This document shows, piece by piece, positions 9,274 to 60,891 of a stretch of 64,000 nucleotides of DNA (positions within the stretch are counted from its first letter, which is position 1; each line of letters opens with the position of its first letter). The stretch comes from an uncultured Gemmatimonadaceae bacterium (GTDB taxonomy: Bacteria; Gemmatimonadota; Gemmatimonadetes; Gemmatimonadales; Gemmatimonadaceae): NCBI GenBank assembly GCA_963781585.1, contig CAWAGQ010000010.1:160001-224000 (forward strand), given 5' to 3'. A model generated the notes under the pieces. It was not told the DNA's origin. It did no database searches and saw only the letters and a list, made by a program, of their open reading frames with translations. The position numbers and the translations under genes were made by a program.

Positions 9274-10987
<1,714 letters not shown>

Positions 10988-10991
<4 letters not shown>

Positions 10992-11437
10992 GCTACCTCC
11001 ACCAGTTCACCGATGCGTTGCTGGCCGTCGGACGGTTCCGTCGCCACTTCGCGATCCGACGTTGCAATATACTGCTCGAACTTCGCGCGCTCGATATACC
11101 AAACGCCTTCGTGCTTCTGCGCGCCGATCGAATCGGGCTTGTGTTTGCAGAGCCACCGCAACGTGCTCACGGGCATGCCACAAATCGCGTGCACATCCGC
11201 GATCGTCAGGTGAAGCCGGGTATCCCTGGCAGTGTTGATGGCTTCCGTGAGTTCACGAACACAATTGGCAAGTGTCATGACGGCGTCCGAGCCGGGCGAT
11301 CGTCGGCGAAGCACGACAAGTTCCGCGTCCCACTGGCGGAGTAGCGATATGGCAGGGCCCGCGACGATGAGGGTTGGCGCGCCAAGCCCCACGAACTCAC
11401 GAGTCGTCTCATTGGTGCCACGCGCAGTATCGACCAT
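10988..11437 (-). CDS. Excisionase-like HTH protein
   Basis: LTIADVHAICGMPVSTLRWLC...AQKHEGVWYI winged HTH pattern; coupled to the integrase start. Confidence 0.6.
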
Positions 11438-11604
11438 GTGGATGGCTGATCCTTGAGGCTCAACTGTCGCGTTCTAGGTGGTCGAGAAGCAGGCGAGGCG
11501 AGTCTACGCCCCACTAATCGGTACCACGAAATGGAGCCGATAGTTCTGGAAGTCTGGAGTCGAACGGTGCCCTCGGTCGCGAAGTACTGACAAGTGGAGC
11601 GCAA

Positions 11605-11997
11605 ATGGCCACTTCAGTGCTACCCCAATCAGCTATCGCAAAGGGCGACGAGATATCTCCGGCGGTTAGCGTGAGCGGTGGAACGCTCGCGCGACAGGCG
11701 ACTCGGCGCAGTTGTACCAAGCTGATCCGATTCACAGCAGAGGAACTCAACGTGGTCATGGCGCGAGCGGCGGCCACTGGACGCCCAGCTGCGTGCTTCA
11801 TCCGTGAGAGTGCGATGGGTCAGAAGCCGAAGGCCAGGATCGGCACGCTCGGCGACGCAGTGGTTCATCAACTGGGACGGGTTGCCATGCGCTTGGAGGA
11901 ACTCTCTGTCGCTGCCAAAACCGCCGGGCTCACGAACGCAGCGGAGTTTGACGCAGTCGTTCGCGATTTGCTCGACACCATCCGAAGCATCGACTGA
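11605..11997 (+). CDS. mobC: MobC/NikA-like ribbon-helix-helix relaxosome accessory protein
   Basis: IRFTAEE...V.ARAAATG.P.A.FIRE.A.G and HQLGRV motifs; precedes a relaxase; real start may be GTG at 11671. Confidence 0.75.
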   Translation: MATSVLPQSAIAKGDEISPAVSVSGGTLARQATRRSCTKLIRFTAEELNVVMARAAATGRPAACFIRESAMGQKPKARIGTLGDAVVHQLGRVAMRLEELSVAAKTAGLTNAAEFDAVVRDLLDTIRSID

Positions 11998-12023
11998 CGC
12001 CGACGCGGGCCGAGGCCAGAACG

Positions 12024-12255
12024 ATGATCGCCGTTTCGAGCAAGAGCCGTAGCTTCGAGTCCCTCGGCAAGTATCTCGTCAATGCGAAAGATGGCGACGA
12101 GCAGGATCGCGTCGCGTGGAGCGCCTCTCGCAACCTGCCGACGGACGATCCGGAACTCGCGGCCAGGATCATGCGGGCAACAGCGGCGCAGAACGTTCGA
12201 GTCGACCAACCCGTCTATCACCTCACAATCAGCTTCGATCCCGGCGACCCTGTCG
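12024..12255 (+). pseudogene. Truncated MOBP/VirD2-type relaxase (N-terminal ~77 aa only)
   Basis: Motif I (SFESLGKYL) and motif II (PVYHLTISFDPGD) present; no HxH motif III; sequence then becomes the antisense of the helicase stub. Confidence 0.8.
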
Positions 12256-12256
12256 G

Positions 12257-12952
12257 GTCGCACACGATCAGGTCCCAACGGCAGTCGGGAACCGCGAGCT
12301 TGACCTGCACATCTTCGTCACGGGACAGCTTGTCGAGACGTGCGATCACGAGGTTGTTTTCGAGGAACCAGTTTCCCGTCCGCGCGGCTTCCAGCTTGTC
12401 GTTCGTCAGAATCTCAAACGGGAGGTGGAAGCGGCGGAATAGCTCGTCCTGCCACTGCTCCGCGAGACTACCTGGACAGACGATGAGACAGCGTTGCAAA
12501 TCACCACGCGCGAGGAGTTCCTTGATGAACAGGCCCGCCATGATCGTCTTGCCGGCACCGGGATCGTCGGCGAGAAGGAATCGGAGCGGCTGGCGCGGCA
12601 ACATTGCTTCGTATACCGCTGTGATCTGGTGGGGAAGCGGGTCAACGAGTGAGGTATGGACGGCGAGTACCGGGTCGAACAGGTGCGCCAGCCGAATTCG
12701 GTGGGCCTCAGACACGAGCCGAAAGAGCTCGCCGTCGCCGTCAAAGCTCCACGCGCGTCCCTGCTCGACTACTTCGAGCCGTGGCTCGTCGTGCCGATAC
12801 AGAAGCTGATTCGCTACGCGACCGGCCGGGTCCTTGTACGTGAGTTCGAGCGCCTCGGATCCGAACCACTGGACGTTCACGACCGTGACGATGCAGTCCG
12901 GGAGGACGCCGCGGACGGAGGCGCTTGGCTGCAGGTCCTGAAGCTTGCTCAT
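12257..12952 (-). pseudogene. Truncated SNF2-family helicase/ATPase (N-terminal ~232 aa)
   Basis: PLPHQ, LLADDPGAGKT (Walker A), QWQDEL; breaks at WDLIVCD just before the E of DEAH; ATG overlaps the peptidase stop. Confidence 0.85.
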
Positions 12953-14022
12953 CGGCGAGCGTCGCGAGCCGCGACCATCGTGATGAAAGCGTAGACGTAC
13001 GGGCCGCGCCGTGCCGCGTGGACACGGATTGGGAGCGCCGGCAGCGCGCCCGTCGACGAGTCTTCCCACCAACTTTGATCTTCCTGAGCGGTGAGGTCGG
13101 TTTCCGTCGCCGACTCGAACGCCTTGTAGAGAACAGAACGCTGCGGCACGCGCATGTTCGGCCTGATCGCGAATCCGGCGTCGTCGGCGAACTCGTTTGG
13201 CACCACCTTCACCGCGCGGAGCTTCGCCGTCGGTCCGGGGGCGAAGGCGAAGCTCTGCTGCCCCGAACGGCGGAAACGATCTTCGGCCCTCTTGAAGGCC
13301 ATCTCTGCTTCAACGAGCAACATCGGCCGATCCTGCAAGTGCAGGCACGCCATCCCTGACGCGAAGATGCTCGGCGTGGGATCGATCGTTGCCCGCGCGG
13401 CCTCAAGAGCGCGAAAGGTCACGCCATGCTCACCGATGGCTGCATCCAGCATGGGCCGGAACAAGGGCTCGTAGAAAGCTAGATGTCCGGCGACGTGATC
13501 GACTACGGTCTCGATCGGATCCTTCTTCACTTCCGTGAAGGTGGGAGTCCGTCGGAATCCTGTGAATGCGAGCTGAGCGGGATGGAGCACGAGATGTGTG
13601 ATCTCGTGCCACGCCGTGAAGTAAGCCCGTGCGGCGCGGGTTCCCCGAGCGTCCACAATCGCGAGATAGCGGGGCCGGTGGAGGTCTTCGGTCTCTCGTT
13701 CGAGCGTTATGCCTTCCGTCGTGTCCTTCACGAATTCCTGTTCCAGCTGCCGACTGAGGGCCGAATGGAATTCAGCGAACTTCGACGCGATAGTCCTCAC
13801 ATCCTCGTCAGATCGGATGTAATCGACTCGCACCCGGTACTTGTGGGAGAGTACGCCGAGGAGCGCACCGAGTGACTCGACCGGTATTGGCGCGTTCTCG
13901 ACGATGCTCCGGACCTGGTCCAACGCGAAGCGTCGGATGGCGGCGAGGCAATCGCCGCGCGTGCTTAACCCGAGCTCTTTGGCTAGAGTCACAACGCGTG
14001 GGTGGCGTGCGATCGGGGGCAT
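12949..14022 (-). CDS. ImmA/IrrE-family zinc metallopeptidase (CapP-like)
   Basis: RAYFTAWHEITH and downstream PIETVVD motif; follows an XRE gene; start may be 14022, 14073 or 14091. Confidence 0.82.
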   Translation of the reverse strand: MPPIARHPRVVTLAKELGLSTRGDCLAAIRRFALDQVRSIVENAPIPVESLGALLGVLSHKYRVRVDYIRSDEDVRTIASKFAEFHSALSRQLEQEFVKDTTEGITLERETEDLHRPRYLAIVDARGTRAARAYFTAWHEITHLVLHPAQLAFTGFRRTPTFTEVKKDPIETVVDHVAGHLAFYEPLFRPMLDAAIGEHGVTFRALEAARATIDPTPSIFASGMACLHLQDRPMLLVEAEMAFKRAEDRFRRSGQQSFAFAPGPTAKLRAVKVVPNEFADDAGFAIRPNMRVPQRSVLYKAFESATETDLTAQEDQSWWEDSSTGALPALPIRVHAARRGPYVYAFITMVAARDARR

Positions 14023-14048
14023 CGTGCTAGCGGAAGTGGCCGCTGCCG

Positions 14049-14498
14049 CTAACGCGGCGACTGCCTGAGCCATTCGTGTAGACGCCTCCACTGCTCCTTC
14101 GAGTAGGGGCGAGCATTGTCATCACCTCCGGGCGACCCACTGCGGCGTGCGACCACCATTCCGCGTGCGCTAAGGAGCTGGCGCGCCTCCTGAAGGGACA
14201 AGTTCTCCTCTTCGGCGTACGTGGCCAACTCGGACGGAATCACTACTGGCTCTCGCTTCGGCCCGCGTGGAAGCTCTCCCTTGACGAGGTAATCCAGTGT
14301 CGTCTCTAGTGCGTCCGCCAAGCGCATAAGAGCATCGGCGCCCGGCTTTCGATGGCCGTTCTCCACCTCGCTAATGAAGGTGACGCTTATCTCTGCGTTC
14401 TTGGCCAGCTCTTGTTGCTTCAGCCCACGCTTTTCGCGGAGGTCTGCAACCCGGGCGCCGAGCGTTGCGGGAACGGAGGGTTTGCTGATGTTTGACAT
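14049..14498 (-). CDS. XRE-family HTH regulator (CapH/ImmR-like)
   Basis: LGARVADLREKRGLKQQELA...ISVTFISEVENG.RKP....L..LA.AL.TTLDYLV. Confidence 0.9.
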   Translation of the reverse strand: MSNISKPSVPATLGARVADLREKRGLKQQELAKNAEISVTFISEVENGHRKPGADALMRLADALETTLDYLVKGELPRGPKREPVVIPSELATYAEEENLSLQEARQLLSARGMVVARRSGSPGGDDNARPYSKEQWRRLHEWLRQSPR

Positions 14499-14535
14499 TT
14501 ACAGTATGCGCTAGTAGCTTACCGTATGATGTAAG
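14492..14535 (+). promoter_or_regulatory. Sigma70 promoter with operator repeats driving the Ubl-Qat operon
   Basis: TTGACA (14492-14497), 17 bp, TAGCTT (14515-14520); TTACMGTATG direct repeat at 14499 and 14519; CTTAC-N8-GTAAG dyad. Confidence 0.65.
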
Positions 14536-14630
14536 TCACCGAAGGCGATCGTATCAAAGATGCACGAAGGCCGACCGGGTGGCAAGGAACTTCAACGTGG
14601 GTTGCGCCGTTCGGCGCGGAGGATTCGAAA

Positions 14631-14942
14631 ATGGGTGAACAGGCGAGTGCAGGGGGAGCAGGGGCTGGAGTCGCGCCGCACGGCAACAGTGGCCAGGGCG
14701 ACGGTCACCGGCAGGATGTTGTCGAGATCACGATCAACAACAAGCCGTACCAGATCCATCGCGGTCGGCAGACGGTCCTCGCCATCAAGACGCTGGGCGG
14801 CGTTCCGCAAGCCGATGAACTTGCGCAGGTGGTCGAGGGAAACACGCCTCCGTTGACGCCACTCAAGGATGACGGCAGCGTGACCATCAAGGGCGGCGAG
14901 ATCTTCGTCTCCTACCCGAGGGACAGCGGGTCCTCCAACTGA
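14631..14942 (+). CDS. Ubiquitin-like (multiubiquitin-domain/beta-grasp) protein, BubA/BilA-like
   Basis: VEITINNKPY.I..G..TV..IK.LGGV.....L....L..DD.V.IKGGE.FVS pattern; tail RDSGSSN; Gly-rich N-terminus. Confidence 0.8.
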   Translation: MGEQASAGGAGAGVAPHGNSGQGDGHRQDVVEITINNKPYQIHRGRQTVLAIKTLGGVPQADELAQVVEGNTPPLTPLKDDGSVTIKGGEIFVSYPRDSGSSN

Positions 14943-14944
14943 CG

Positions 14945-15283
14945 ATGTCGTTTCCAGGCGAACAGGTGGCGGAGCTGAGCGCGCTATACCCCGGACTCCA
15001 GCAGGCGACGGAGGCCGGGGTGCTCTACTTCTTGATCCCCAGCCTCGCGCTCCCGGCCGGATGTTCCGCGGCAAGCGTGGACGCGCTCCTATGTCCGACT
15101 CAAAGGGAAGGGTACGAATCCCGGCTGTTTCTCTCGAAACAGATTACCTGTGCGGCCACTCGGAATTGGAACGCATCGAACATTCGCGTTCTGGAGCGTA
15201 ACTGGTTCGCGGTATCGTGGAAGACGCGTTCGGGGTTGCGACTCGCGCAGATGGTAAGCGCGCACATCGAGGCGTTTCGCTGA
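14945..15283 (+). CDS. Prokaryotic E2-like protein (BubB-like)
   Basis: EAGVLYFLIP.L.LP.GC....DALLCP...GY.SRLF....NWN...LERNWFAVSW; lies between the Ubl and JAB-E1 genes. Confidence 0.72.
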   Translation: MSFPGEQVAELSALYPGLQQATEAGVLYFLIPSLALPAGCSAASVDALLCPTQREGYESRLFLSKQITCAATRNWNASNIRVLERNWFAVSWKTRSGLRLAQMVSAHIEAFR

Positions 15284-16689
15284 TGACGATGAGACGAGGT
15301 AGAATAGCGAGGCACGTCGCGCGCGACGCGCACACATACAGCGAGCCCCCCGTCGGCGCCGCGATTCTGCGGATCCCGAACACGATCGCCGACCGAGTTC
15401 GGGACGACCTGCGGCGGCCCCATCGATTCGCGGCGGAGCGCATCGGATTTCTGAGCGCGGCGGTCGGGCCCACTGAGGCCGGCCTCGTGATAGTCGCGGC
15501 GGAGTATTACACCGTCGCCGACGAGCACTACGTTCCCGGGCGTGGAGCCGGTGGTCGCATTGGTGTCCAGGCGATCCGAGAGGCAATGACGCGCGCGATC
15601 GCGTCTGGCCTCGGCATCTTCCATGTGCATCTCCATGAGCACAGCGGGGTCCCGTCGTTCAGCCCCACCGACCGCGCCGAGCAGACGCGCCTCGTGCAGA
15701 GCCTGAACGCTGCCTCTCCAAACCGGCCGCACGGCATGATCGTGCTTAGCGCCGACGGTGCGAATGCTTGGATATGGATGCCTGGCGAGACGGTACCGTC
15801 CGTTCCTGCGCGCCTGGCGTTGGTCGGCTACCCGATGCACTTGGTTGGCGGCGCCACTCGGCGTCGGAACCGCCGAGCGGGCGATCGGTACTCTCGACAG
15901 TCGTTCCTCGGGCCCGAGAGTGAAGAGCAGCTTGGTACCGTTCGGATCGGATTGCTGGGATTCGGCGGCGGCGGGTCACACGTGGGTCAGCAGCTTGCTC
16001 ACCTCGGCGCGGAGAGCGTACGCGTTGCAGATGGTGACCGAATCGACGATTCGAACCTGAATCGGCTCGTCGGTGCGACCGCGGGCGACGTCCGCGCCAA
16101 GCGCCTCAAAGTCGATATCGCAAGGCGCATCGTCTCTGCGGTGAACCAGCAAGCGGACGTCATTACACATGACGGGCCCTGGCAGGAGCGTGCCGACCTG
16201 TTCCGCTCCTGTGACATCCTCGTTGGGTGTGTCGACTCGTTCAAGCAGCGGCAAGAAGCCGAGGTGCTCGCTCGGCGCTTCGCGATTCCATACATCGACA
16301 TTGGCATGGACGTTCATCAGGTCGACGACGATCCGCCGCGCATCGGCGGTCAGCTAATACTGTCGATGCCGGGCGGCCCCTGCATGACCTGTTTCGGATT
16401 CCTCACGCCAGAAAAACTCGCGAGCGAGGCGGCGCGGTACGGCGATGCGGGCGGTCGGCCGCAGGTCGTCTGGCCGAACGGAGTCCTCGCGTCCTCAGCC
16501 GTCGGCGTTATCGTTGATCTCGTGACGGGCTGGACGCGGATGCGAGATCGGATCGTGTACCTCTCGTACGACGGGAATCTTGGGACGCTCACGGATCACG
16601 TTCGCCTGCGCCACCTTCGATGGAGTTCGTGCCCGCACTTTCCGGAGGGCGCGGTCGGGATGCCGCGATTCACGCCAGCGCGAGCGTAG
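15283..16689 (+). CDS. JAB/MPN-like domain fused to ThiF/E1 adenylation enzyme (BubC-D-like)
   Basis: N-half ERIGF...HVHLHEH...FSPTD; C-half RYSRQ, GFGGGGS, SNLNRL, GCVDS, IDIG, CMTC, CPH; TGATG coupling to E2. Confidence 0.85.
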   Translation: MTMRRGRIARHVARDAHTYSEPPVGAAILRIPNTIADRVRDDLRRPHRFAAERIGFLSAAVGPTEAGLVIVAAEYYTVADEHYVPGRGAGGRIGVQAIREAMTRAIASGLGIFHVHLHEHSGVPSFSPTDRAEQTRLVQSLNAASPNRPHGMIVLSADGANAWIWMPGETVPSVPARLALVGYPMHLVGGATRRRNRRAGDRYSRQSFLGPESEEQLGTVRIGLLGFGGGGSHVGQQLAHLGAESVRVADGDRIDDSNLNRLVGATAGDVRAKRLKVDIARRIVSAVNQQADVITHDGPWQERADLFRSCDILVGCVDSFKQRQEAEVLARRFAIPYIDIGMDVHQVDDDPPRIGGQLILSMPGGPCMTCFGFLTPEKLASEAARYGDAGGRPQVVWPNGVLASSAVGVIVDLVTGWTRMRDRIVYLSYDGNLGTLTDHVRLRHLRWSSCPHFPEGAVGMPRFTPARA

Positions 16690-16776
16690 CGTAGCGCATT
16701 GGTCCGACGAATCCACTCGCGCTCGACGTACTGACACGCATTTCGTAGCCAACCAGTTTCGAGAGGACAGGCCTGG

Positions 16777-18780
16777 ATGTGGTCCGATAACGAAGCCGAA
16801 ATCGACCTCCTCAATGTTGAACACCTTGTTGGTGCGGTTCTCCGCGTCGTCAGGGATGATCGCCTCGACCCAGTCACGGTCGGTGTATACGGCGACTGGG
16901 GAAGCGGGAAGTCCAGCGTTATCCAGCTACTTCGTCAGCGCATCGCGACGGAGCCGGATCTACTCGCCGTGTACTTCAATGGATGGCGTTTCGAGGGCTA
17001 CGAGGACGCTAAGGCGGCGTTGGCCTCGACCATACTGGAGCAGATCCAAGAGGAAGCGGCGAAGCCGAACGGCGGGAAGTTTGCTCGGGCGAAAGACGCA
17101 GTCGTTGCTGCAGTGAGCGGCCTCTGGGATCGCGTGGACAAATTGCGGTTGAGCAAGCAGGCGCTGACAGTCGGTGCAAACGCCGGGCTCGCCGCTGGAG
17201 CGCTGGCAATCGGCGCTACGGCAGCTGTGCCAGTTACTGCGGCCGCGATCTTCGGCGTCGTGGTCAAGTCATTGCTCCACTCCGGTAAGGAGATCGACGG
17301 CGAGAAGCTCGCCGAACTGATCAAGGAGCGTGAAAAGGCCGAATCGAAGGACCAGCGCGACATGCACGTCTCGGTGCGGGACTTCCACAAGGAGTTCGCC
17401 AAGCTCGTTGCGCAGCTCGGCGTCAAGCGGCTTGTCGTGATAGTTGACGATCTCGACCGGTGCCTTCCGCACAACGTTATCGAGACTCTCGAGGCGATCC
17501 GGCTCTTTCTGGCTGCGCCGAAGACTGCCTTCGTCATCGCGGCCGACGAAGCGCTGATTCGGGAGGCCGTCGGGTATCGGTTTGCTGAACCGACGCCGGT
17601 GCTTGGAGCCGAGGGACGCCCGCGAGCGTCGATCGGAGCGCGTTATCTGGAGAAATTGATCCAGGTGCCAATCCGGGTTCCTCCCTTGTCACGGAGCGAC
17701 CTACACGGGTACCTGAACCTCCTCTTCGCGGAGGAACGGTCCGCGAATGCGGCCAGCTTCGCGCAGCTCGCCGGGCGCGTGCGCAGCGCGTCATCCTACG
17801 ACGTCATCTCGTTCCATCCGGGCAACGCTGAGAATCTCTTGGGAGGGCCGATCAGCGATGACCTCAAGGCGGATTTCGTCTTGGCCGAACAGATAGCTCC
17901 GGTGCTGGCACTCACGGCGGAAGGAAACCCGCGCCAGACGAAGCGGTTTCTCAATGCACTCGTCTTACGGTTGGAGATGGCCCATGCTCGCGGCATGACG
18001 CTTGATCGCCAGGTAGCAGCGAAACTTCTACTTCTCGAATACTTCTTGCCCGAGCTGTTTCGCTCGCTCGCCCTTGAGGTTGCGGCCAACGAGGGGCAGT
18101 CCCCATCACTGGCAGCTCTTGAGGCAGACGCGCGAACGATTGGTACGACTGCGGGCGGCGGTGTGCGAGACGGCGTCGGGACCGGAAGCACCTTCGCGAC
18201 GCAGGCGGCGGCAATGCGGGCAAGCGACCGGTTCCTCACTTGGGTGCGTACGGACCCTGAACTCGGAAATCTGGATTTGCGGCCGTACGTGTATTTCGCA
18301 AGCGAGCGCTACGCGCTGCCCGTCGGTGTGGCGCAGCGATTGAGCCCATCCGGAGCCCGGGCGCTTCAGGACCTGCGCTCAGATAGCGAGGCGCTGCACC
18401 AGAAGGCTGCCGAGGCCGCAACAGGTCTCCCGCTTCCTGAGCTAACCGCAATCATCGGCGAGTTGACTGCCTACGCTCGAACGGGTCGAGTTAACCTCGA
18501 TGAGCGTACGTCACCACTCTCGGCGATGGTCGAAGTCGCCAAGCGCCGCCCTGACGTCGCTCCTGACGTTCTTGCGTCGATTCTCGGCCTGCCATCCGAC
18601 ATGGTGCCGGTTGCGGCTCCGGTGCTCGTAAATGCTCTCGGCAGCGTCGCTGGTATGCGGGACGCCGCGACGAGCGCTCTTGAGACGCTTGCTTCCTCAC
18701 CGAACAAGGCGGTCAAGGCTGCGGCCGAGGGTCGCCTTCGGGCCGTGCGTGACGGGTCAGCCGCGAATCGGGGGCGGTAG
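16777..18780 (+). CDS. qatA: Qat system KAP-family P-loop NTPase QatA
   Basis: MWSDNE..DLLN start, GVYGDWGSGKSS, LVVIVDDLDRC, YLEKLIQVP, NPRQ.KRFLN; gene order A-B-C-D. Confidence 0.92.
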   Translation: MWSDNEAEIDLLNVEHLVGAVLRVVRDDRLDPVTVGVYGDWGSGKSSVIQLLRQRIATEPDLLAVYFNGWRFEGYEDAKAALASTILEQIQEEAAKPNGGKFARAKDAVVAAVSGLWDRVDKLRLSKQALTVGANAGLAAGALAIGATAAVPVTAAAIFGVVVKSLLHSGKEIDGEKLAELIKEREKAESKDQRDMHVSVRDFHKEFAKLVAQLGVKRLVVIVDDLDRCLPHNVIETLEAIRLFLAAPKTAFVIAADEALIREAVGYRFAEPTPVLGAEGRPRASIGARYLEKLIQVPIRVPPLSRSDLHGYLNLLFAEERSANAASFAQLAGRVRSASSYDVISFHPGNAENLLGGPISDDLKADFVLAEQIAPVLALTAEGNPRQTKRFLNALVLRLEMAHARGMTLDRQVAAKLLLLEYFLPELFRSLALEVAANEGQSPSLAALEADARTIGTTAGGGVRDGVGTGSTFATQAAAMRASDRFLTWVRTDPELGNLDLRPYVYFASERYALPVGVAQRLSPSGARALQDLRSDSEALHQKAAEAATGLPLPELTAIIGELTAYARTGRVNLDERTSPLSAMVEVAKRRPDVAPDVLASILGLPSDMVPVAAPVLVNALGSVAGMRDAATSALETLASSPNKAVKAAAEGRLRAVRDGSAANRGR

Positions 18781-18782
18781 CT

Positions 18783-19736
18783 GTGGGCACCTCGACATCC
18801 AATCCAGGACCAATGGGACGCCCGTCGCTGCTACCGCCTTGGGCACCAGCCGCCGACGTCGGGGATGCTGGCGAAGGCGACCACGATCAAGGCGGCCAGC
18901 CGGACGATGGCAGCGCGAACGACGATGGACAGGGTGGAGCCAGTTCCGGTGATGTCGGCGCCGATTCGACCGGCACGGGGAGTGAGGCGGCTGGGCCTCC
19001 GTCGTGGATGTCGGTTCGTCGGCTCGTCGGAGCTGCGGGCTCAGGTCGCGCAGGGGGTCACCGAGGACGCGACAACCTGCATCGGGCGGTGCGGCGCTCA
19101 GTCGGTGCCATGGGCGGGCGCCGCGCAGCGGCGCACAGTGCGGTGGCTGGCCGCCAGACGGCCGGCCGGTTCGCGAGCTTTCTCGCTGGCGTCGCGGCCG
19201 GCGGCGTCGAGGCGGCGGCGGGGGCGCTGGGGATCGCCGAGCACCTCGGCGGAAGCGCGGATGTGTTCCTTCTTCACCTCGCCGACGCGCTTGCGCCGGC
19301 CGGCGCGCTGACGGAGGAAGCGATTGCACGAGACGCAATGGACGCCACGCTGATGGATCTGTATCAGCAGCTCAACATCGATGCCGACGGCGTCGTCGCC
19401 CTCGAGCGATTGTCCGCCGCGATGATGGCAGGGGCACTCGTCCAGTACGTGATCAATTACATCCATGCACGCGTGATCAATGCGCTTGCGGCGCACCTCC
19501 ATGCTTCTTCTTCAACGGTTAGCCGAATCGGAGACGCCGAGCGAACGGCCCGACGGTATATCGAGAGTGTGGTGCGGCAAGACATTGACACAAGCGCCTT
19601 CTTCGGCTCGAACGGTCAGTTACTCGCAGACCGATGGGACGCGGCTGCAGGCCAACGGATCATAAACCGCCTCTTTGAGGAAGCCTATCGAGTGGTTGAA
19701 GCTGGTCTGGCTCAATCACCGAGGGGGAGCGCGTGA
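18783..19736 (+). CDS. qatB: Qat system protein QatB
   Basis: MGTS N-terminus (GTG start), LLPPWA, acidic linker, helical C-domain; between qatA and qatC. Confidence 0.88.
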   Translation: MGTSTSNPGPMGRPSLLPPWAPAADVGDAGEGDHDQGGQPDDGSANDDGQGGASSGDVGADSTGTGSEAAGPPSWMSVRRLVGAAGSGRAGGHRGRDNLHRAVRRSVGAMGGRRAAAHSAVAGRQTAGRFASFLAGVAAGGVEAAAGALGIAEHLGGSADVFLLHLADALAPAGALTEEAIARDAMDATLMDLYQQLNIDADGVVALERLSAAMMAGALVQYVINYIHARVINALAAHLHASSSTVSRIGDAERTARRYIESVVRQDIDTSAFFGSNGQLLADRWDAAAGQRIINRLFEEAYRVVEAGLAQSPRGSA

Positions 19737-21139
19737 CGGCGCGTACGGCGTCTGCCATCCCGACCTATCGCGTGCTCCTCCGCGCCGGCGCCTCCGACGC
19801 AGCCAGCGTCGTCCCGAAGACGGGCGATATTCTGGTGGGACTCCGCATGGATGGTGCTCCCGGTGACGATGCCTCGCGGGTCGACGAATCGGTTTGGGAT
19901 ACCCTCTGGGCATTTGGATTGCGTCCGTCACAGCACGCCACCGACTTCTTCCGCGTGGCGACAGCGGCCTACTGCGCCGACCTTCTGATCCCGCACGAGA
20001 CCGCATTCGATCGCTGGTCGCGCGCGATCAGCCTGCACGTACCTGTCAGCGATCCGGCGCGTTGGCGCTCGGTCGAGGCGCCGCTTCGCGAAATGCTGGG
20101 CTTCCTCACCGGAGACCATTGGACGTTTGACTTCCGCGCGGTAGCTGTAGCACCACCTACGGGTCATGCGCACTTGCGGGGCCGATATGGCCCCGTCCGC
20201 GCAAGTCGGGTGAGCCTGCTGTCTGGCGGCCTCGATTCCGCCATTGGGGCCGCCGACCTGATCGACGCCGGAGAACAGGTGGCATTCGTTAGCCACAACG
20301 CCAAGAGTGGGGGCGCGGTCTTTTCGAGCCCCTCGCAGCGCGCTGTGCTCGACGTGCTTCGGCCGAGCGGGGTCGTGGGCCAAGTACATCACTTGCGTTT
20401 TCGGGTCAACCCGCCTGCCCCCATCCAAGGGATCACCGCTGCCGTCACGACGACCCGCAGTCGGTCGATCATGTTCTTCGCACTCGGTTTACTCGTGGCA
20501 AGCGCGTTGGACGCTGTTCAGCGCGACGGCCCGATCCCGCTCGTGATCCCGGAGAACGGATTGATTTCACTCAACGTGCCGCTCACGAAGGCACGGCTGG
20601 GAAGCTGGAGCACTCGTACGACTCACCCTCACACACTAGCGACGCTTCGGCTCGTGCTGGCTGGTCTCGGCCTCACGACGCCGCTCGTAACGCCGTATGC
20701 TACTGCGACGAAAGGCGAGGTCCTGGCATCGCTCGTCGCGCGAGGCCGCGAACGGGCAGAATTGCTAACCGCGGTGACTGTCTCGTGTGCCCACCCAAAC
20801 CAGAGCAGATTCTTGGAGCCTGGACGCCGCCAACCCCACTGTGGAACCTGCGTTCCGTGCATCATTCGACGTTCCGCCACGCAGCACGCGGGAATCGATG
20901 ACGCCAGATACAGCTTCAACCTGCCATCTGAGCTCACTGTCCTGCGGCGTGGTCGCGCCGAAGACCCGTCTGCATTCGCATATGCGCTGGCGACTCGTCG
21001 TCGACCGGCCCGGCCGCTCGACATCAACCTGGCCGGCCCTCTGCACGTCGATACTGATAATGACTTGCGCGCCCTTCTGCGGGTATTCGACGCCGGCATG
21101 GATGAGGTTGCGCGGTTTCTGGGCGTCGAAATCCGCTAG
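19733..21139 (+). CDS. qatC: Qat system QueC-like protein QatC
   Basis: SLLSGGLDS PP-loop, RSRS..F, PENG.ISLNVPL...STRTTHP, SCAH...HCGTCVPCIIRR. Confidence 0.93.
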   Translation: MTARTASAIPTYRVLLRAGASDAASVVPKTGDILVGLRMDGAPGDDASRVDESVWDTLWAFGLRPSQHATDFFRVATAAYCADLLIPHETAFDRWSRAISLHVPVSDPARWRSVEAPLREMLGFLTGDHWTFDFRAVAVAPPTGHAHLRGRYGPVRASRVSLLSGGLDSAIGAADLIDAGEQVAFVSHNAKSGGAVFSSPSQRAVLDVLRPSGVVGQVHHLRFRVNPPAPIQGITAAVTTTRSRSIMFFALGLLVASALDAVQRDGPIPLVIPENGLISLNVPLTKARLGSWSTRTTHPHTLATLRLVLAGLGLTTPLVTPYATATKGEVLASLVARGRERAELLTAVTVSCAHPNQSRFLEPGRRQPHCGTCVPCIIRRSATQHAGIDDARYSFNLPSELTVLRRGRAEDPSAFAYALATRRRPARPLDINLAGPLHVDTDNDLRALLRVFDAGMDEVARFLGVEIR

Positions 21140-21145
21140 CTGCCG

Positions 21146-21946
21146 ATGCCCCCCGCGCCAACCCGGTCGGCCCGCCTCGTCGACACGCATTGCCATGTCG
21201 ACCTCTTCTCCGATCCGGCCGGTGTGGTGCGTGAGACTGAAAAGCACCAGGTCTACACCATCGCGGTAACCAACACACCGTCGGTATTCTCACATCTGTG
21301 CGGAATCATCGGGAACTCCCGATTTGTGCGACCAGCCTTGGGGCTGCACCCGGAGCTCGCACCGCAGCGCCATCGTGAACTGTCGCTCTTCACCGAGTTA
21401 CTTCCACAGACCCGCTACATCGGCGAGGTCGGGCTCGATTATCAGACCACCGCCGAATCCGAGCGTGTCGTGCAGCGACGGGTCCTAACCACCATCGTCG
21501 AGCAGTGCGACGCAGTCGGCGGAAAGATCGTTACGGCGCACAGTCGGCGCGCAGCCGAGGACGTAGTGTCTGCGTTCGGTGAAGGGTTCCGAGGCGCGTA
21601 CATCTTGCACTGGTATTCGGGAGCAGTGCGAACTCTCAAGCGCGCGGTTGCCAACGGCGCGTACTTCTCGGTCAACCCTGCAATGATGCGCTCCGATCGC
21701 GGACGAACGTTGGTGTCTCAGGTGCCGCGAGAGCGCGTACTCACCGAGACGGACGGGCCATTCGTATCCGTCGACGATGCACCAGCGTTGCCATATCAAG
21801 TCCACCTTGTGGTAGACGAGTTGGCGCGACTCTGGGGTGTTTCGCCCGATGAGGCGCGCAGTACCGTGCGCCAGAATCTGTCAGCCGTGCTGCGCGGTCG
21901 CGACGGCCGTTCCGACGGAGGTATCAATGAGCGGGGCGAGCTGTGA
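21146..21946 (+). CDS. qatD: Qat system TatD-family nuclease QatD
   Basis: DTHCH, GLHP, IGEVGLD, HSRRA, LHWYSG, TETDGP motifs. Confidence 0.93.
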   Translation: MPPAPTRSARLVDTHCHVDLFSDPAGVVRETEKHQVYTIAVTNTPSVFSHLCGIIGNSRFVRPALGLHPELAPQRHRELSLFTELLPQTRYIGEVGLDYQTTAESERVVQRRVLTTIVEQCDAVGGKIVTAHSRRAAEDVVSAFGEGFRGAYILHWYSGAVRTLKRAVANGAYFSVNPAMMRSDRGRTLVSQVPRERVLTETDGPFVSVDDAPALPYQVHLVVDELARLWGVSPDEARSTVRQNLSAVLRGRDGRSDGGINERGEL

Positions 21947-22145
21947 ATCGGTCTAACCCACGGCAGCAGCCGACGGTTCGCGCTCGGTGCCGCGGCGCGT
22001 TCGCTCTTGTCTAGCACCCGGGACCCGTTCCGGGACCCGTTCGAGGCCGAACTCGGCGCGATAGGCTCAGCGCCCAGAGCACCGCACGTGACGTCTTCAG
22101 AGGGAAGTTGGCGTATACTGCACTCAGCCCTTGTGTTTCGTCCTC

Positions 22146-22250
22146 CTTCCCAAGCTGGACGTCGCCGGTTCGAGTCCGGTCGCCCGCTCTCCCCAAGTGC
22201 TCGATCTCGACCCACCGCCGATCGCCGGAATCCCAACGGATCCCGGCGAT
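22146..22250 (+). repeat. attR direct repeat (displaced 3' half of tRNA-Gly plus terminator hairpin)
   Basis: Matches 9304-9408; includes the ATCGCCGG...CCGGCGAT hairpin. Confidence 0.95.
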
Positions 22251-22264
22251 CTCTGCGTGAGGGC

Positions 22265-23002
22265 TCATCGGCCGCGAATGAGGAACAGCAACCCCGCCAC
22301 GATCATCGTCGCTTCGATCAGCACCACGAACACCCGCTCGGAGAGTCGATCGACAATGCGCTTGCCCGTCCAGGAGCCCAGCACCATGACGGGACCCATC
22401 GCGAGGCCTACGAGAACCGAACTGCCGGAAAGCACCGCCGCATTCCGATACGCGACGAGCTTCGTCAGATGCATCACGACCGTCGACAGCGCCTCAGTGC
22501 CGATGTAGGCGCCCCGCACGAGTCCGAACGCGAGAAAAAACGGCGCCATCAGTGGCCCAACGCTCCCAAGAAGCGCCGAGACGAAACTGGCCGCGGCCCC
22601 GATGAGGGCGAAGCCGCGGAGCGGCGGACGCGGGAAGCCGCGTGGGCGCAGATGACGCCAGGCCACCACGAACAGCAGGAAAGCGCCGAGTAGCCGGGTC
22701 AGGGCGGCCAGCGGCGCGCGGGCGAAGAGCAATCCCCCGAGAAAGCCGAGCGGCACAGATCCGACTGCGAACCATCCCACCACCCGGTAGTTCAACTCAC
22801 GGCGGTTGAACCACACCCGGCTGCCGTTGCCGATGAGCTGTGCCACGGTGAGGATCGGCACCGCATCGCGTACCCCGACGGCGACCACCAAAACAGGCAG
22901 GAGCACCGCCGCTCCGCCAAATCCGGTGATGGCCGCGAGTGTGGACGCCACAAGGGCAGCGGCGCCGACAAGGAGCGAAGATCCGGCGGAGAGGTGTGGC
23001 AT
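22265..23002 (-). CDS. Sulfite exporter TauE/SafE family membrane protein
   Basis: TGFGGA..LLP, SALLGSVGP; hydrophobic 245 aa. Confidence 0.88.
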   Translation of the reverse strand: MPHLSAGSSLLVGAAALVASTLAAITGFGGAAVLLPVLVVAVGVRDAVPILTVAQLIGNGSRVWFNRRELNYRVVGWFAVGSVPLGFLGGLLFARAPLAALTRLLGAFLLFVVAWRHLRPRGFPRPPLRGFALIGAAASFVSALLGSVGPLMAPFFLAFGLVRGAYIGTEALSTVVMHLTKLVAYRNAAVLSGSSVLVGLAMGPVMVLGSWTGKRIVDRLSERVFVVLIEATMIVAGLLFLIRGR

Positions 23003-26332: not shown

Positions 26333-27835
26333 CTATGGCCAGCGCACGGGCGCCGGACTGGCGCGCGGGGTGGTGGTTCCGTCGCCAAGCTCGCCGCTGC
26401 CGTTGTTGCCCCAGCAGTAGACCGCGCTGGCGCTGGTAATCCCGCAGCTGAAGGCGGTCCCGGGCGATATGCTCTGGAATGTCAGGCCACCAGTGACCGC
26501 GACCGGGAGGGATCGGTTGTCGAGCGTGCCGTCACCCACCTCGCCCGCGTTGTATCCCCAGCAGTAGCCCGCGCCAGCATCGGTGACGCCGCACATGGTC
26601 TCGTATCCGGCGGCAAGGCCCTGGAACGTCAGCCCGCCGCCGACCGCGACCGGAACGAGGCTTCGCGTGATCCCGCCCTCGGTGCCGCTGGTGCCGTTGC
26701 CCAGCGTTCCGACGGAATTATTTCCCCAGCAGTACGCCTTGCCGGCAGTGGTCAGGCCGCAAACGGCCAGCCCTCCTGCAGCGAGACTCCGGAAGGTCAG
26801 GCCGCCGGAGACGGGCACGGGCGCGGTGCTGCTGGTGCCAAGGCCGTTTCCCAACTGACCGAACACGCCCAGCCCCCAGCAAAAAGCGTCGCCGGCCGGC
26901 GTCAGGGCGCACGCGTAGTCGCTGCCCGCGACGATGCTCGCGAAGGCCATCCCCGCCGCCGCCACCGACGGGGTCAGGTGGGTCCCGGTGGTTCCGTCGC
27001 CGAAGGCGCCGTTGGGTGAGAATCCCCAGCAGTACGCGGTGCCGTTGATCGCCACGCCGCACACGACGGCATTGCCCACGGCAAGACTCCTGAACGTCAG
27101 CCCGCCAGCTACCGGAGTCGGGGCCAATCGTTGCGCGGTGGTACCATCTCCCAGCTGACCGCTCCGGTTCTCGCCCCAGCAGTAGGCGGCGCCACCGCCG
27201 GTGAGCCCGCAGCTGACTCCTTCGACCTTGGAGACGGAAACCGTGTTGAACGCGAGCCCGCCGGCGACCGCGATTGGTGTCGGGTTGACCGCCGACGTCT
27301 CGTTGTTCCCCAGTTGTCCGCTCTCGTTGAACCCCCAGCAATACGCGGCGCCGGCACTCGTTACCGCGCAAACATGAGCGCCCGCCGCCACGAAGCTGAC
27401 CGCGGGGCCGCCACCGGACGTGCCGCTGACCGTTACGACCTCGGTCGCCTGCTGCGCCTCAGCGCCGGGCGCACTGGCGTGCACGACGACCTGATACGAC
27501 GCCTGGGCGAGTGTCGCGGTGGCCGTGACCGTGAGGGTCGCGCTATCCGGGTCACTTGTGCCCACGAGGCTGACGACAAGCCCGGGTGGTGCGCCCGCGG
27601 CCGTGTAGGTGATGCCGCTCGCAAGTCCGCCGGTACGAGTGACCCGCAGGTAGGTGCTGGCCGACCCACCGGACCTCACCGACAGATTCGAGGTGCCAAG
27701 GGTCAACGTGAACGCCGGGGGCGGAGGATACCCGGTGCTGTCCGTAATAGCTGAGTCGCATGCCAGGATCGCGGCGCCAGCGGCGAGAATCGCGAGTACA
27801 GCACGCGTCGGCCCGAGAAGGGAGTGACGCAACAT
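26333..27835 (-). CDS. RCC1-repeat lipoprotein with N-terminal Ig-like domain
   Basis: Seven AYCWG.N..GQLG-type repeats; lipobox-like AILAC. Confidence 0.9.
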   Translation of the reverse strand: MLRHSLLGPTRAVLAILAAGAAILACDSAITDSTGYPPPPAFTLTLGTSNLSVRSGGSASTYLRVTRTGGLASGITYTAAGAPPGLVVSLVGTSDPDSATLTVTATATLAQASYQVVVHASAPGAEAQQATEVVTVSGTSGGGPAVSFVAAGAHVCAVTSAGAAYCWGFNESGQLGNNETSAVNPTPIAVAGGLAFNTVSVSKVEGVSCGLTGGGAAYCWGENRSGQLGDGTTAQRLAPTPVAGGLTFRSLAVGNAVVCGVAINGTAYCWGFSPNGAFGDGTTGTHLTPSVAAAGMAFASIVAGSDYACALTPAGDAFCWGLGVFGQLGNGLGTSSTAPVPVSGGLTFRSLAAGGLAVCGLTTAGKAYCWGNNSVGTLGNGTSGTEGGITRSLVPVAVGGGLTFQGLAAGYETMCGVTDAGAGYCWGYNAGEVGDGTLDNRSLPVAVTGGLTFQSISPGTAFSCGITSASAVYCWGNNGSGELGDGTTTPRASPAPVRWP

Positions 27836-60387: not shown

Positions 60388-60503
60388 AATTCGTGGAAGC
60401 AGGGAGATGCGCGACGACGTGTCCCTGCCTCGCTCCGAGGTAATGCAGGTCCCCAGGCCTCGCTTCCGATCCGGTGGCGGTTACATTTTGGGGTCGGAGT
60501 TGA

Positions 60504-60817
60504 CGGGACGTAGCGCAGTCCGGTAGCGCACCTGAATGGGGTGGCGTTCGCTGCCGCCCGAGGCGGCATCGACCGCGAGTGCGCCGTCGCTGCGCTCCGG
60601 CTTCACACAGGGGGTCGCGGGTCCGCGACCCCACTGGCTTCGGTGGTAGTTTGAGGTCGACGGGACGTAGCGCAGTCCGGTAGCGCACCTGAATGGGGTG
60701 GCGTTCGCTGCCGCCCGAGGCGGCATCGACCGCGAGTGCGCCGTCGTTGCGCTCCGGCTTCACACAGGGGGTCGCTGGTCCGCGACCCCACCGGCTTCGG
60801 TGGTAGTTTGAGGGTGA
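60504..60817 (+). repeat. Two 157-bp tandem units, each an interrupted tRNA-Pro copy
   Basis: Units start at 60504 and 60661 with the first 39 nt of the tRNA at 60818, then a 65-nt insert, then tRNA sequence CAGGGGGTCGC resumes. Confidence 0.9.
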
Positions 60818-60891
60818 CGGGACGTAGCGCAGTCCGGTAGCGCACCTGAATGGGGTTCAGGGGGTCGCGGGTTCAAATCCCGCCGTCCCGA
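60818..60891 (+). tRNA. tRNA-Pro(GGG)
   Basis: CGGGACG/CGTCCCG acceptor stem, CCTGA-ATGGGGT-TCAGG anticodon arm, GGTTCAAATCC T-arm. Confidence 0.95.

Follow-up and report, generated by a model that had tools for sequence, protein, structure and literature searches.

In the present study we have analysed a window of 64,000 nucleotides from an uncultured Gemmatimonadaceae bacterium (contig CAWAGQ010000010.1, positions 160,001 to 224,000 of the forward strand), and in particular a cassette of three genes for a ubiquitin-like protein (Ubl), an E2-like protein and a fusion of a JAB/JAMM peptidase with an E1 domain (JAB-E1), which are compared here with BubA, BubB and BubCD of the bacterial Bub systems (Table 1; positions are those of the window). 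A preliminary description of this DNA, made from the letters alone, had placed a compact three-gene module at 14631-16689, and all the sequence features that it quoted were found where it had put them. The lack of BubE, the CapH/CapP pair, QatABCD and the island had escaped it. In the reading of the open reading frames (ORFs) a GGAGG stretch precedes the ATG of the Ubl gene by 8 nt, and the E2-like gene starts 2 nt past the Ubl stop. The ORF of JAB-E1 is listed from a GTG at 15217; the ATG at 15283, which overlaps the E2 stop (TGATG), is the inferred start and would give 468 aa, as suggested by this overlap and by the alignment of homologue N-termini. For comparison 160 related loci were collected, 80 from genomes (spanning up to 8 kb per side, contig permitting) and 80 from metagenomes. 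Ubl, E2 and JAB/E1 were jointly found by phmmer in 73 of the 80 genome loci, which argues that the cassette is not a product of chance; of the metagenome loci, many of which lie on cut contigs, 62 yielded the E2 and 58 the Ubl.

Table 1. Features of the cassette, its neighbours and the surrounding island (residue numbers are given for sites within a protein).
Feature	Position	Strand	Basis or remark
Ubl (BubA-like) gene	14631..14942	+	ORF, 103 aa
E2-like (BubB-like) gene	14945..15283	+	ORF, 112 aa
[quoted passage not shown]
ATP loop of JAB-E1	G226-S232		homologue alignment
Zn site of JAB-E1	C367xxC370...C450xH452		homologue alignment
CapH-like XRE helix-turn-helix (HTH) repressor	14049..14498	-	Pfam HTH_3 1.5e-14; PADLOC capH 1e-13
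CapP-like (ImmA/IrrE-type) metallopeptidase	12949..14091	-	PADLOC capP 3.5e-7, residues 92-267
QatA	16777-18780	+	PADLOC 1.3e-113; Pfam KAP_NTPase
QatB	18783-19736	+	PADLOC 1.9e-30
QatC	19733-21139	+	PADLOC 1.3e-96; Pfam QueC
QatD	21146-21946	+	PADLOC 6.2e-81; Pfam TatD_DNase
Integrative island	9304..22254		tRNA-Gly(CCC) site, 109-nt direct repeats
Probable integrase	9288-10991	-	phrog_1 integrase 1.1e-6 only; no Pfam, NCBIfam or PDB match
NikA-like gene	11605-11994		island remnant
Relaxase N-terminal fragment	12024-12806		island remnant
SNF2/DrmD-like helicase fragment	12221-13072	-	island remnant

The JAB-E1 fusion and the E2-like protein

The best match of JAB-E1 among PDB sequences is Citrobacter BubCD (9ea4_A, phmmer E 9.2e-16), residues 108-381 being aligned with 85-356. 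The match covers both domains and bears out the fusion of a JAB-like domain to E1 that had been noticed at the outset. Uba4 and ThiF are the other top matches, and not a Bil E1. One ThiF domain of ~270 aa makes up the E1 part (Pfam ThiF on residues 206-442, 2e-25); ThiF/MoeB models match it, all below their cut-offs. The JAB motif FHVHLHEHSGVPSFSPTD aligns with the JAMM site of BubCD, so that H116, H118, S127 and D130 correspond to H91, H93, S101 and D104, and E52 aligns with E28 of BubCD. This alignment indicates a normal JAMM site, whereas the preliminary description had taken HVHLHEH...SPTD for a variant metal motif. The JAMM residues, including E52, are invariant or nearly so across 26 homologues, in which the ATP-site residues are invariant, and the HxH...SxxD motif is present in 80/80 related loci.

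The crossover loop of the E1 domain, FGFLTPEKLASEAARYGDAGGR, lies between C367xxC370 (CMTC) and P393QVV and contains no Cys, in agreement with the earlier observation. A Tyr, Tyr386 in the window, is found in all 80 loops and as a YG pair in 77 of them, and it is invariant in 26/26 homologues; the suggestion that the Tyr of ARYG is a candidate nucleophile thus points to the conserved residue of the loop. A loop Cys occurs in 4 of the 80, always at the first loop position directly beside the CxxC Zn motif.

The E2-like protein carries the motifs DALLCP (Cys50) and NWFAVSWK (Ser91) and found no match in Pfam, PADLOC, NCBIfam or PDB sequences. Searches of the Ubl and the E2 against PDB chains, as single sequences and as profiles, returned nothing relevant, and the link of these two proteins to Bub comes from fold searches only. 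An AlphaFold2 (AF2) model of the E2, made with 31 homologues (predicted local distance difference test, pLDDT, 90.3), has BubB 9eav_D as its top match in VIA-align (Z 12.3, root-mean-square deviation 3.0, 111/112 residues aligned), the next match being an ordinary E2 with Z 6.9; Foldseek ranks 9eae_C first (E 1.6e-3, TMq 0.72). The preliminary description had proposed such a comparison of AlphaFold models with Bub structures, and for the Ubl and the E2 it yielded beta-grasp and UBC-type folds, respectively, with Bub structures ranked first.

Among 78 E2 sequences Ser91, Tyr57, Trp75 and Trp87 are present in all, His107 in 75 and Cys50 in 70. Since Ser91 is kept in 78/78 and Cys50 in 70/78, Ser91 is the favoured nucleophile of the E2, and Cys50 appears conserved but dispensable. 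Either residue had been named before as a candidate; the Ser stands and the Cys has lost ground. The spacing Trp87-x3-Ser91, read by eye, equals that of canonical BubB, W94-x3-S98 (WQRWSRH). The model places Cys50 at the end of a core beta-strand (44-50), and Ser91 between the 75-90 hairpin and the last helix. The neighbours of the E2 in the ESM Atlas are unnamed clusters (score 0.96), a cluster with 31% PF14462 standing at rank 17 (score 0.91). The search of representative sequences also listed a few long proteins (189-387 aa) that include an E2.

Fold and C-terminal tail of the ubiquitin-like protein

[quoted passage not shown] The four structures closest to the AF2 model of residues 24-103 (pLDDT 87.2) are all Bub multi-ubiquitin proteins, namely 9d59_A (Z 11.0), 9d5b_A (10.0), 9cd2_B (9.7) and 9eav_C (BubA, 8.4), with the next structure at 7.5, and Foldseek agrees in placing Bub Ubls nearest to the model.

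The tail of the protein reads E90-I-F92-VSYPRD-S99-G100-S101-S102-N103. In canonical BubA the reactive Gly is located at F+10, that is, ten residues past the Phe of the ExF motif in the last strand. It is found there in the standalone BubA of Oscillatoria and Synechocystis, which finish in ...ERFFTGKKTTTEG-stop, and also in five fused BubAB (...EKFITGPKKSTEG, then linker and E2). Positions were counted from the same Phe in 74 Ubls of the branch to which the window belongs (see below). Position F+7 (S99 in the window) is Gly in 59, Ser in 12 and Ala in 3; F+8 (G100) is Gly in 29, Ser in 17, Ala in 13, Thr in 8 and another residue in 7; F+9 (S101) is Ser in 63, Ala in 9 and another residue in 2; F+10 (S102) is Ser in 70 and Ala in 4, so that the reactive C-terminal Gly of Type I Bub is not found at its place; F+11 (N103) is unconserved and present in only 8. 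The other 66 Ubls stop exactly at F+10, and the extensions of the eight are short and unconserved: N in the window, and D, QN, R, K, WR, HDDGRA and HEEEVA elsewhere. In the metagenome Ubls 48 of 55 end at F+10 and 49 have SS. The sole fused form among the 80 genome loci (L013:7015-7977, +) is a protein of 320 aa with three beta-grasp repeats and the E2, joined as ...PSGGSS-SIIPHEQLEDL.

Because the branch has a Ser at the canonical Gly position and most of its Ubls stop there, the reactive end is probably Ser102, with Asn103 as the only residue to be removed, which is the most economical reading of the tail. The preliminary description had seen here a single Gly masked by a three-residue extension, SSN, that must be trimmed. 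The first part of this view is probably wrong, given the poor conservation of Gly100, and the trimming would probably be limited to Asn103.

Relation to the Bub systems and proposed mechanism

Among solved structures all three proteins have their closest relatives in Citrobacter BubCD, BubB and BubA, and the earlier assignment of the cassette as a Bub-like variant has held. Our reference is Type I Bub (6E.1), which we take to comprise BubA/BubB (fused or separate), BubCD and BubE, with Citrobacter sp. RHBSTW-00271 as its example (PDB 9ea4, 9eae, 9eav). The window cassette shares with it the order Ubl, E2, JAB-E1 fusion, the Cys-free loop with a conserved Tyr, a UBC-fold E2 with an invariant Ser, a beta-grasp Ubl of the multi-ubiquitin type, frequent CapH/CapP partners and a mobile-element context. 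It differs from Type I Bub in having no BubE/DUF6527, in a Ubl that ends in Ser-Ser where the canonical one ends in Gly, and in its E2 and JAB-E1 sequences, which are treated below; furthermore, JAB and E1 are separate genes in 29/80 of its relatives. The split of Ubl and E2 into two genes was considered as a novelty and rejected, canonical Type I Bub being also split in Oscillatoria, Synechocystis and Deinococcus. Within the range of 69-221 aa that was searched there were 677 homologues of canonical BubB, nearly all of those listed having ~126 aa, and rows with a separate E2 exist in Table S1 of the Bub preprint (bioRxiv 10.1101/2024.11.21.623953).

According to the same preprint, all Bub operons possess bubE (DUF6527), and the catalogue is anchored on this family (bioRxiv 10.1101/2024.11.21.623953). 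A catalogue built from DUF6527 operons cannot contain a BubE-less branch, and in our literature search on Bub systems and DUF6527 no description of such a branch was found. A search of the genome of the window (5.7 Mb, 93.5% complete) with PF20137 (DUF6527/BubE) gave no match. A BubE profile of four sequences, which recovered only its own four sequences and had no independent positive control, gave no match in the window, the 80 genome loci or the 80 metagenome loci. Whole-genome searches of five carriers found four without DUF6527 and one with a copy at a distance of ~110 kb, where it adjoins a phage portal gene; this copy (L081) was rejected as a Bub operon on account of that neighbour. A conserved fourth gene of the cassette was also looked for downstream and rejected, no downstream family being common to more than 4 of the 80 genome loci.

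The separateness of the branch is seen in several comparisons. A tblastn search of plasmids with JAB-E1 was bimodal, with ten records at 43-47% identity, within its own branch, and the rest, canonical examples among them, at 23-30%; the low group includes Oscillatoria nigro-viridis PCC 7112, which is named as Type I Bub in the preprint. Of five loci inspected in the low group, three have DUF6527 annotated (those of Oscillatoria, Deinococcus and Synechocystis pSYSX) and two do not, Mesorhizobium AR07 and Nostoc N6. In the high group it is annotated in none of the three intact loci (Bosea, Methylocystis and Sphingobium); the Spirosoma locus, a fourth, is cut by Tn3. The profile of the E1 domain scores 340-460 bits inside the branch versus 88-139 for canonical and other loci. 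In a quick maximum-likelihood tree, with a midpoint root only, an internal edge 1.59 long (SH-aLRT support 95) has the 84 rows of the branch together on the same side. The plasmid loci of Mesorhizobium AR07 (L087) and Nostoc N6 (L088), at 23-26% identity, lie on long branches outside the window clade and may represent other BubE-less branches.

We propose that the cassette represents an uncatalogued, BubE-less and Ser-terminated branch of the Bub lineage, and we judge this to be, as a whole, quite probably the best explanation of the sequence evidence. The branch spans many phyla. Relatives were confirmed in 318 cases in contigs of one genome per species and in at least 537 cases in metagenome contigs. 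Of 8000 candidates scored against JAB-E1, 3553 were homologues with E <= 1e-10, canonical BubCD included, and the search with the E2 gave 337 representatives (50% clustering) at E <= 0.001, of which 241 had E <= 1e-10.

The mechanism that we propose takes the Bub pathway as its model. In the work of Ye, Gong, Chambers and Corbett, BubCD is reported to lack a Cys in its crossover loop and to use an invariant Tyr (Y370), BubB to use an invariant Ser (S333) accompanied by His and Asp in Type I or by Lys and His in Type II, and the changes Y370F and S333A/H335A abolish Bub conjugation (bioRxiv 10.1101/2024.11.21.623953). The statement in the preliminary description that Bub pathways are reported to use oxyester intermediates is in line with the Tyr/Ser chemistry reported there. 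In the window, the CapH/CapP-like pair would repress the operon until DNA damage or infection, following the published CapH/CapP model. The JAB domain would then trim the Ubl beyond the conserved Ser-Ser, which means only Asn103 in this case, and the E1 domain would adenylate the C-terminal carboxylate of the Ubl, by its position most likely that of Ser102. By homology to Y370 and S333 of the Citrobacter proteins, Tyr386 would take the Ubl as an oxyester and deliver it to Ser91 of the E2, from which it would pass to target lysines. In this mechanism the JAB domain would also be the likely deconjugase, given that there is no BubE.

In a complex prediction the E2 was scored as partner of the E1 domain (residues 195-468) together with the Ubl and ATP, and its score of 0.60 (0.62, 0.60, 0.60) gives weak support. 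The best of three controls scored 0.00; at least 91% of contacts are common to the runs, and the partner has a pLDDT of at least 91. Among solved complexes 116 of 157 reached the score mark, as did 2 of 215 mismatched pairs, and scores of 0.60 or less came from only 18 of these solved complexes and from both mismatches. Furthermore, since a like complex (9eav) has been solved, the pass may reflect likeness and not binding.

Several points weigh against the proposal. We know of no characterised precedent for a C-terminal Ser as the substrate of Ubl adenylation, and the Gly common at F+7 leaves room for trimming to a Gly. The E2 family is not recognised by Prok-E2_E (PF14462), which matches 1 of 31 members with E 0.14. 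In hhalign, with one canonical BubB as with an alignment of 26 BubB sequences, only the N-terminal half is aligned; the profile-profile alignment covers the N-terminal 49 columns, at 26% probability. As the alignment goes no further, the equivalence of Ser91 and S333 rests on fold rank, motif spacing and conservation. The canonical Ser-x-His is replaced by Ser-Trp-Lys/Arg, the position +2 from Ser91 being Lys, Arg or Gln and not His, and the canonical Asp is without a clear counterpart. Cys50, kept as widely as it is, could have a role. For Bub systems themselves, the preprint gives no demonstrated phage-defence phenotype (bioRxiv 10.1101/2024.11.21.623953).

Other explanations were considered as well. 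The cascade may run as proposed with a mature Ubl that ends in Gly, namely in Gly100 after removal of Ser-Ser-Asn. In its favour, the characterised Ubls, including Citrobacter BubA with G229, all react via Gly according to the preprint (bioRxiv 10.1101/2024.11.21.623953), Gly is frequent at F+7 and F+8, and the JAB domain is always retained; against it, there is no conserved single Gly position and 6 of the 74 tails have no Gly anywhere in F+6 to F+8, while conservation in the tail is best at F+9 (Ser or Ala in 72/74) and F+10 (74/74), most genes stop right after the latter, where canonical BubA has its Gly, and what follows in the others is short and variable. We consider this explanation unlikely, with some claim to attention. 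That the E2 acts through a Cys50 thioester, oxyester chemistry being confined to the E1 step, appears highly unlikely: Cys50 of DALLCP is invariant in the 31 closest homologues, but it is missing from 8 of the 78 E2s in which Ser91 is universal, and Ser91 is placed in the model where non-canonical E2s would carry their nucleophile, judging from descriptions of Cap2 and BubB, and not at the end of a core strand. A ThiF/MoeB-type sulfur-carrier or small-molecule pathway instead of protein conjugation would agree with the matches of the E1 domain to ThiF/MoeB models, all below cut-offs. The UBC-fold partner, the JAMM peptidase fused or coupled to E1, the lack of a loop Cys, of a rhodanese domain and of a biosynthetic neighbour, the mobile island and the patchy distribution all speak against such a pathway, which is extremely improbable.

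Other known systems were compared with the cassette. Type II Bub (6E.2; BubA, a BubBD E2-E1 fusion, BubE) has the same Tyr/Ser oxyester logic, and the Lys and His that join its E2 Ser recall Ser91, Lys93 and His107 of the window, which has in contrast no E2-E1 fusion, no BubE and a JAB domain. BilABCD (Type I/II Bil) resembles the cassette in its four functions, Ubl, E2, JAB and E1, and in a defence-island context; the Bil E1 is an IAD-AAD-CYS multidomain protein whose Cys is catalytic and the Bil E2 is Cys-dependent, whereas the window E1 is a single adenylation domain without a loop Cys. Type II CBASS, a defence context too, unites in Cap2/Cap3 an E2, a JAB peptidase and the adenylation domain of an E1, and weak PADLOC E1-E2 (Cap2) matches were found on E1 residues 216-338 (best 2.4e-9). 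The window differs from it in separate E2 and E1 genes, in a dedicated Ubl and in having no CD-NTase, none being detected by PADLOC among the nine scanned proteins of 12949-21946.

Bub pathways are the sole ubiquitin-type cascades known without catalytic cysteines (bioRxiv 10.1101/2024.11.21.623953). If a Ubl with a reactive Ser end exists in this branch and the JAB domain replaces BubE, both the requirement of a Gly end in Ubls and that of BubE in Bub would need relaxing. The window offers a compact test object, with the CapH/CapP pair, the cassette and QatABCD in a 12.8-kb island.

Regulators, QatABCD and the island

The CapH-like gene is divergent from the Ubl gene, with an intergenic region of 132 nt, and forms with the CapP-like gene a pair on the opposite strand. 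The CapP-like protein contains the HExxH-type stretch WHEITH in its translation and has no match in Pfam or NCBIfam. In 52 of 75 related loci the 2.2 kb upstream include a Peptidase_M78 (ImmA/IrrE) gene, and two more loci, L001 and L003, show a phmmer match to the window CapP. CapH/CapP partners are present in 31% of catalogued Bub operons, as stated in the preprint (bioRxiv 10.1101/2024.11.21.623953). A scan of 14470-14640 for an inverted repeat (operator) gave none at the settings used, and a sigma-70-like promoter scan of 14000-22500 gave none; both results carry no evidential weight.

The island is bounded by the 109-nt direct repeats at 9304-9412 and 22146-22254 (97% identical, spacing 12,842), the first of which overlaps the tRNA-Gly(CCC) at 9274-9347. 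Its identifiable defence cargo consists of the CapH/CapP pair, the Ubl cassette and QatABCD. A search of 41 genomes for the E2 gene detected it in that of the window only, and in none of its 40 relatives. QatABCD is complete and in order (16777..21946) and begins after a gap of 87 nt behind the E1 stop, in which a crude consensus scan found no terminator-like site. The QatB protein begins MGTSTSNPGPMG, and an N-terminal glycine motif of QatB is described as essential for Qat defence in PMC13279940.

This arrangement would allow the Ubl cassette and QatABCD to be read as a composite seven-gene system under CapH/CapP, in which Ubl conjugation would regulate Qat or cooperate with it, as Cap2/Cap3 regulate the CD-NTase in type II CBASS. 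The seven genes share one strand, the gap between E1 and QatA is short and free of a terminator-like site, a single regulator pair lies upstream, and cassette and Qat together are the identifiable defence cargo of the island. Against this, the 160 related loci contain no Qat operon adjoining the cassette, and the candidate of a conserved Qat linkage was rejected. Only two distant single Qat-like ORFs were seen, both on the opposite strand: a QatC-like ORF ~4 kb away in L004, the only one among the genome loci, and a KAP NTPase in L148, the only one among the metagenome loci, of which 46 of 80 have at least 1.5 kb of downstream sequence. Furthermore, there is no conserved downstream gene, the terminator scan was a crude one, and a QatBC complex is reported in PMC13279940 to be the minimal requirement of qatABCD defence, no such partners being involved. 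Given the lack of Qat beside the cassette in the other loci, the adjacency is likelier to be a co-location within the island, Qat probably not being part of the Ubl system, and the composite system is left with a very low probability. Its most specific form, in which the seven plus-strand genes would be one CapH/CapP-controlled transcription unit and a Ser-terminated all-oxyester Ubl cascade would attach its tag to a phage protein or to a component of Qat, thereby licensing Qat or restraining it, seems highly improbable at best; it would amount to two protein-modification defence systems having been fused, in this lineage specifically, on a single minimal mobile island.

Other upstream neighbours were seen in some loci. 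A sigma-70/ECF factor lies within ~1.3 kb upstream of the Ubl gene in L040, L045, L056, L065 and L076, accompanied by Peptidase_M78 in all of these except L065, and would be an alternative regulatory layout. A proteasome-subunit-like ORF (PF00227, 1.8e-11; L074:5550-6281, -) precedes the cassette by no more than ~1.1 kb in a metagenome-assembled genome (MAG) of Methylotenera, and a caspase-like ORF (PF00656, 2.3e-9; L002:4119-5135, +) upstream of the cassette in a Longimicrobium MAG. Elsewhere in the window, positions 60499-60891 hold three tandem copies, with a period of 157 nt, of the 5' part of tRNA-Pro(GGG), of which only the last (60818-60891) is called whole; these copies may be scars of repeated integration. 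A further repeat with a period of ~150 nt and seven copies (26372-27374) lies within an ORF of 500 aa (26333-27835, -), which encodes a repeat-domain protein.

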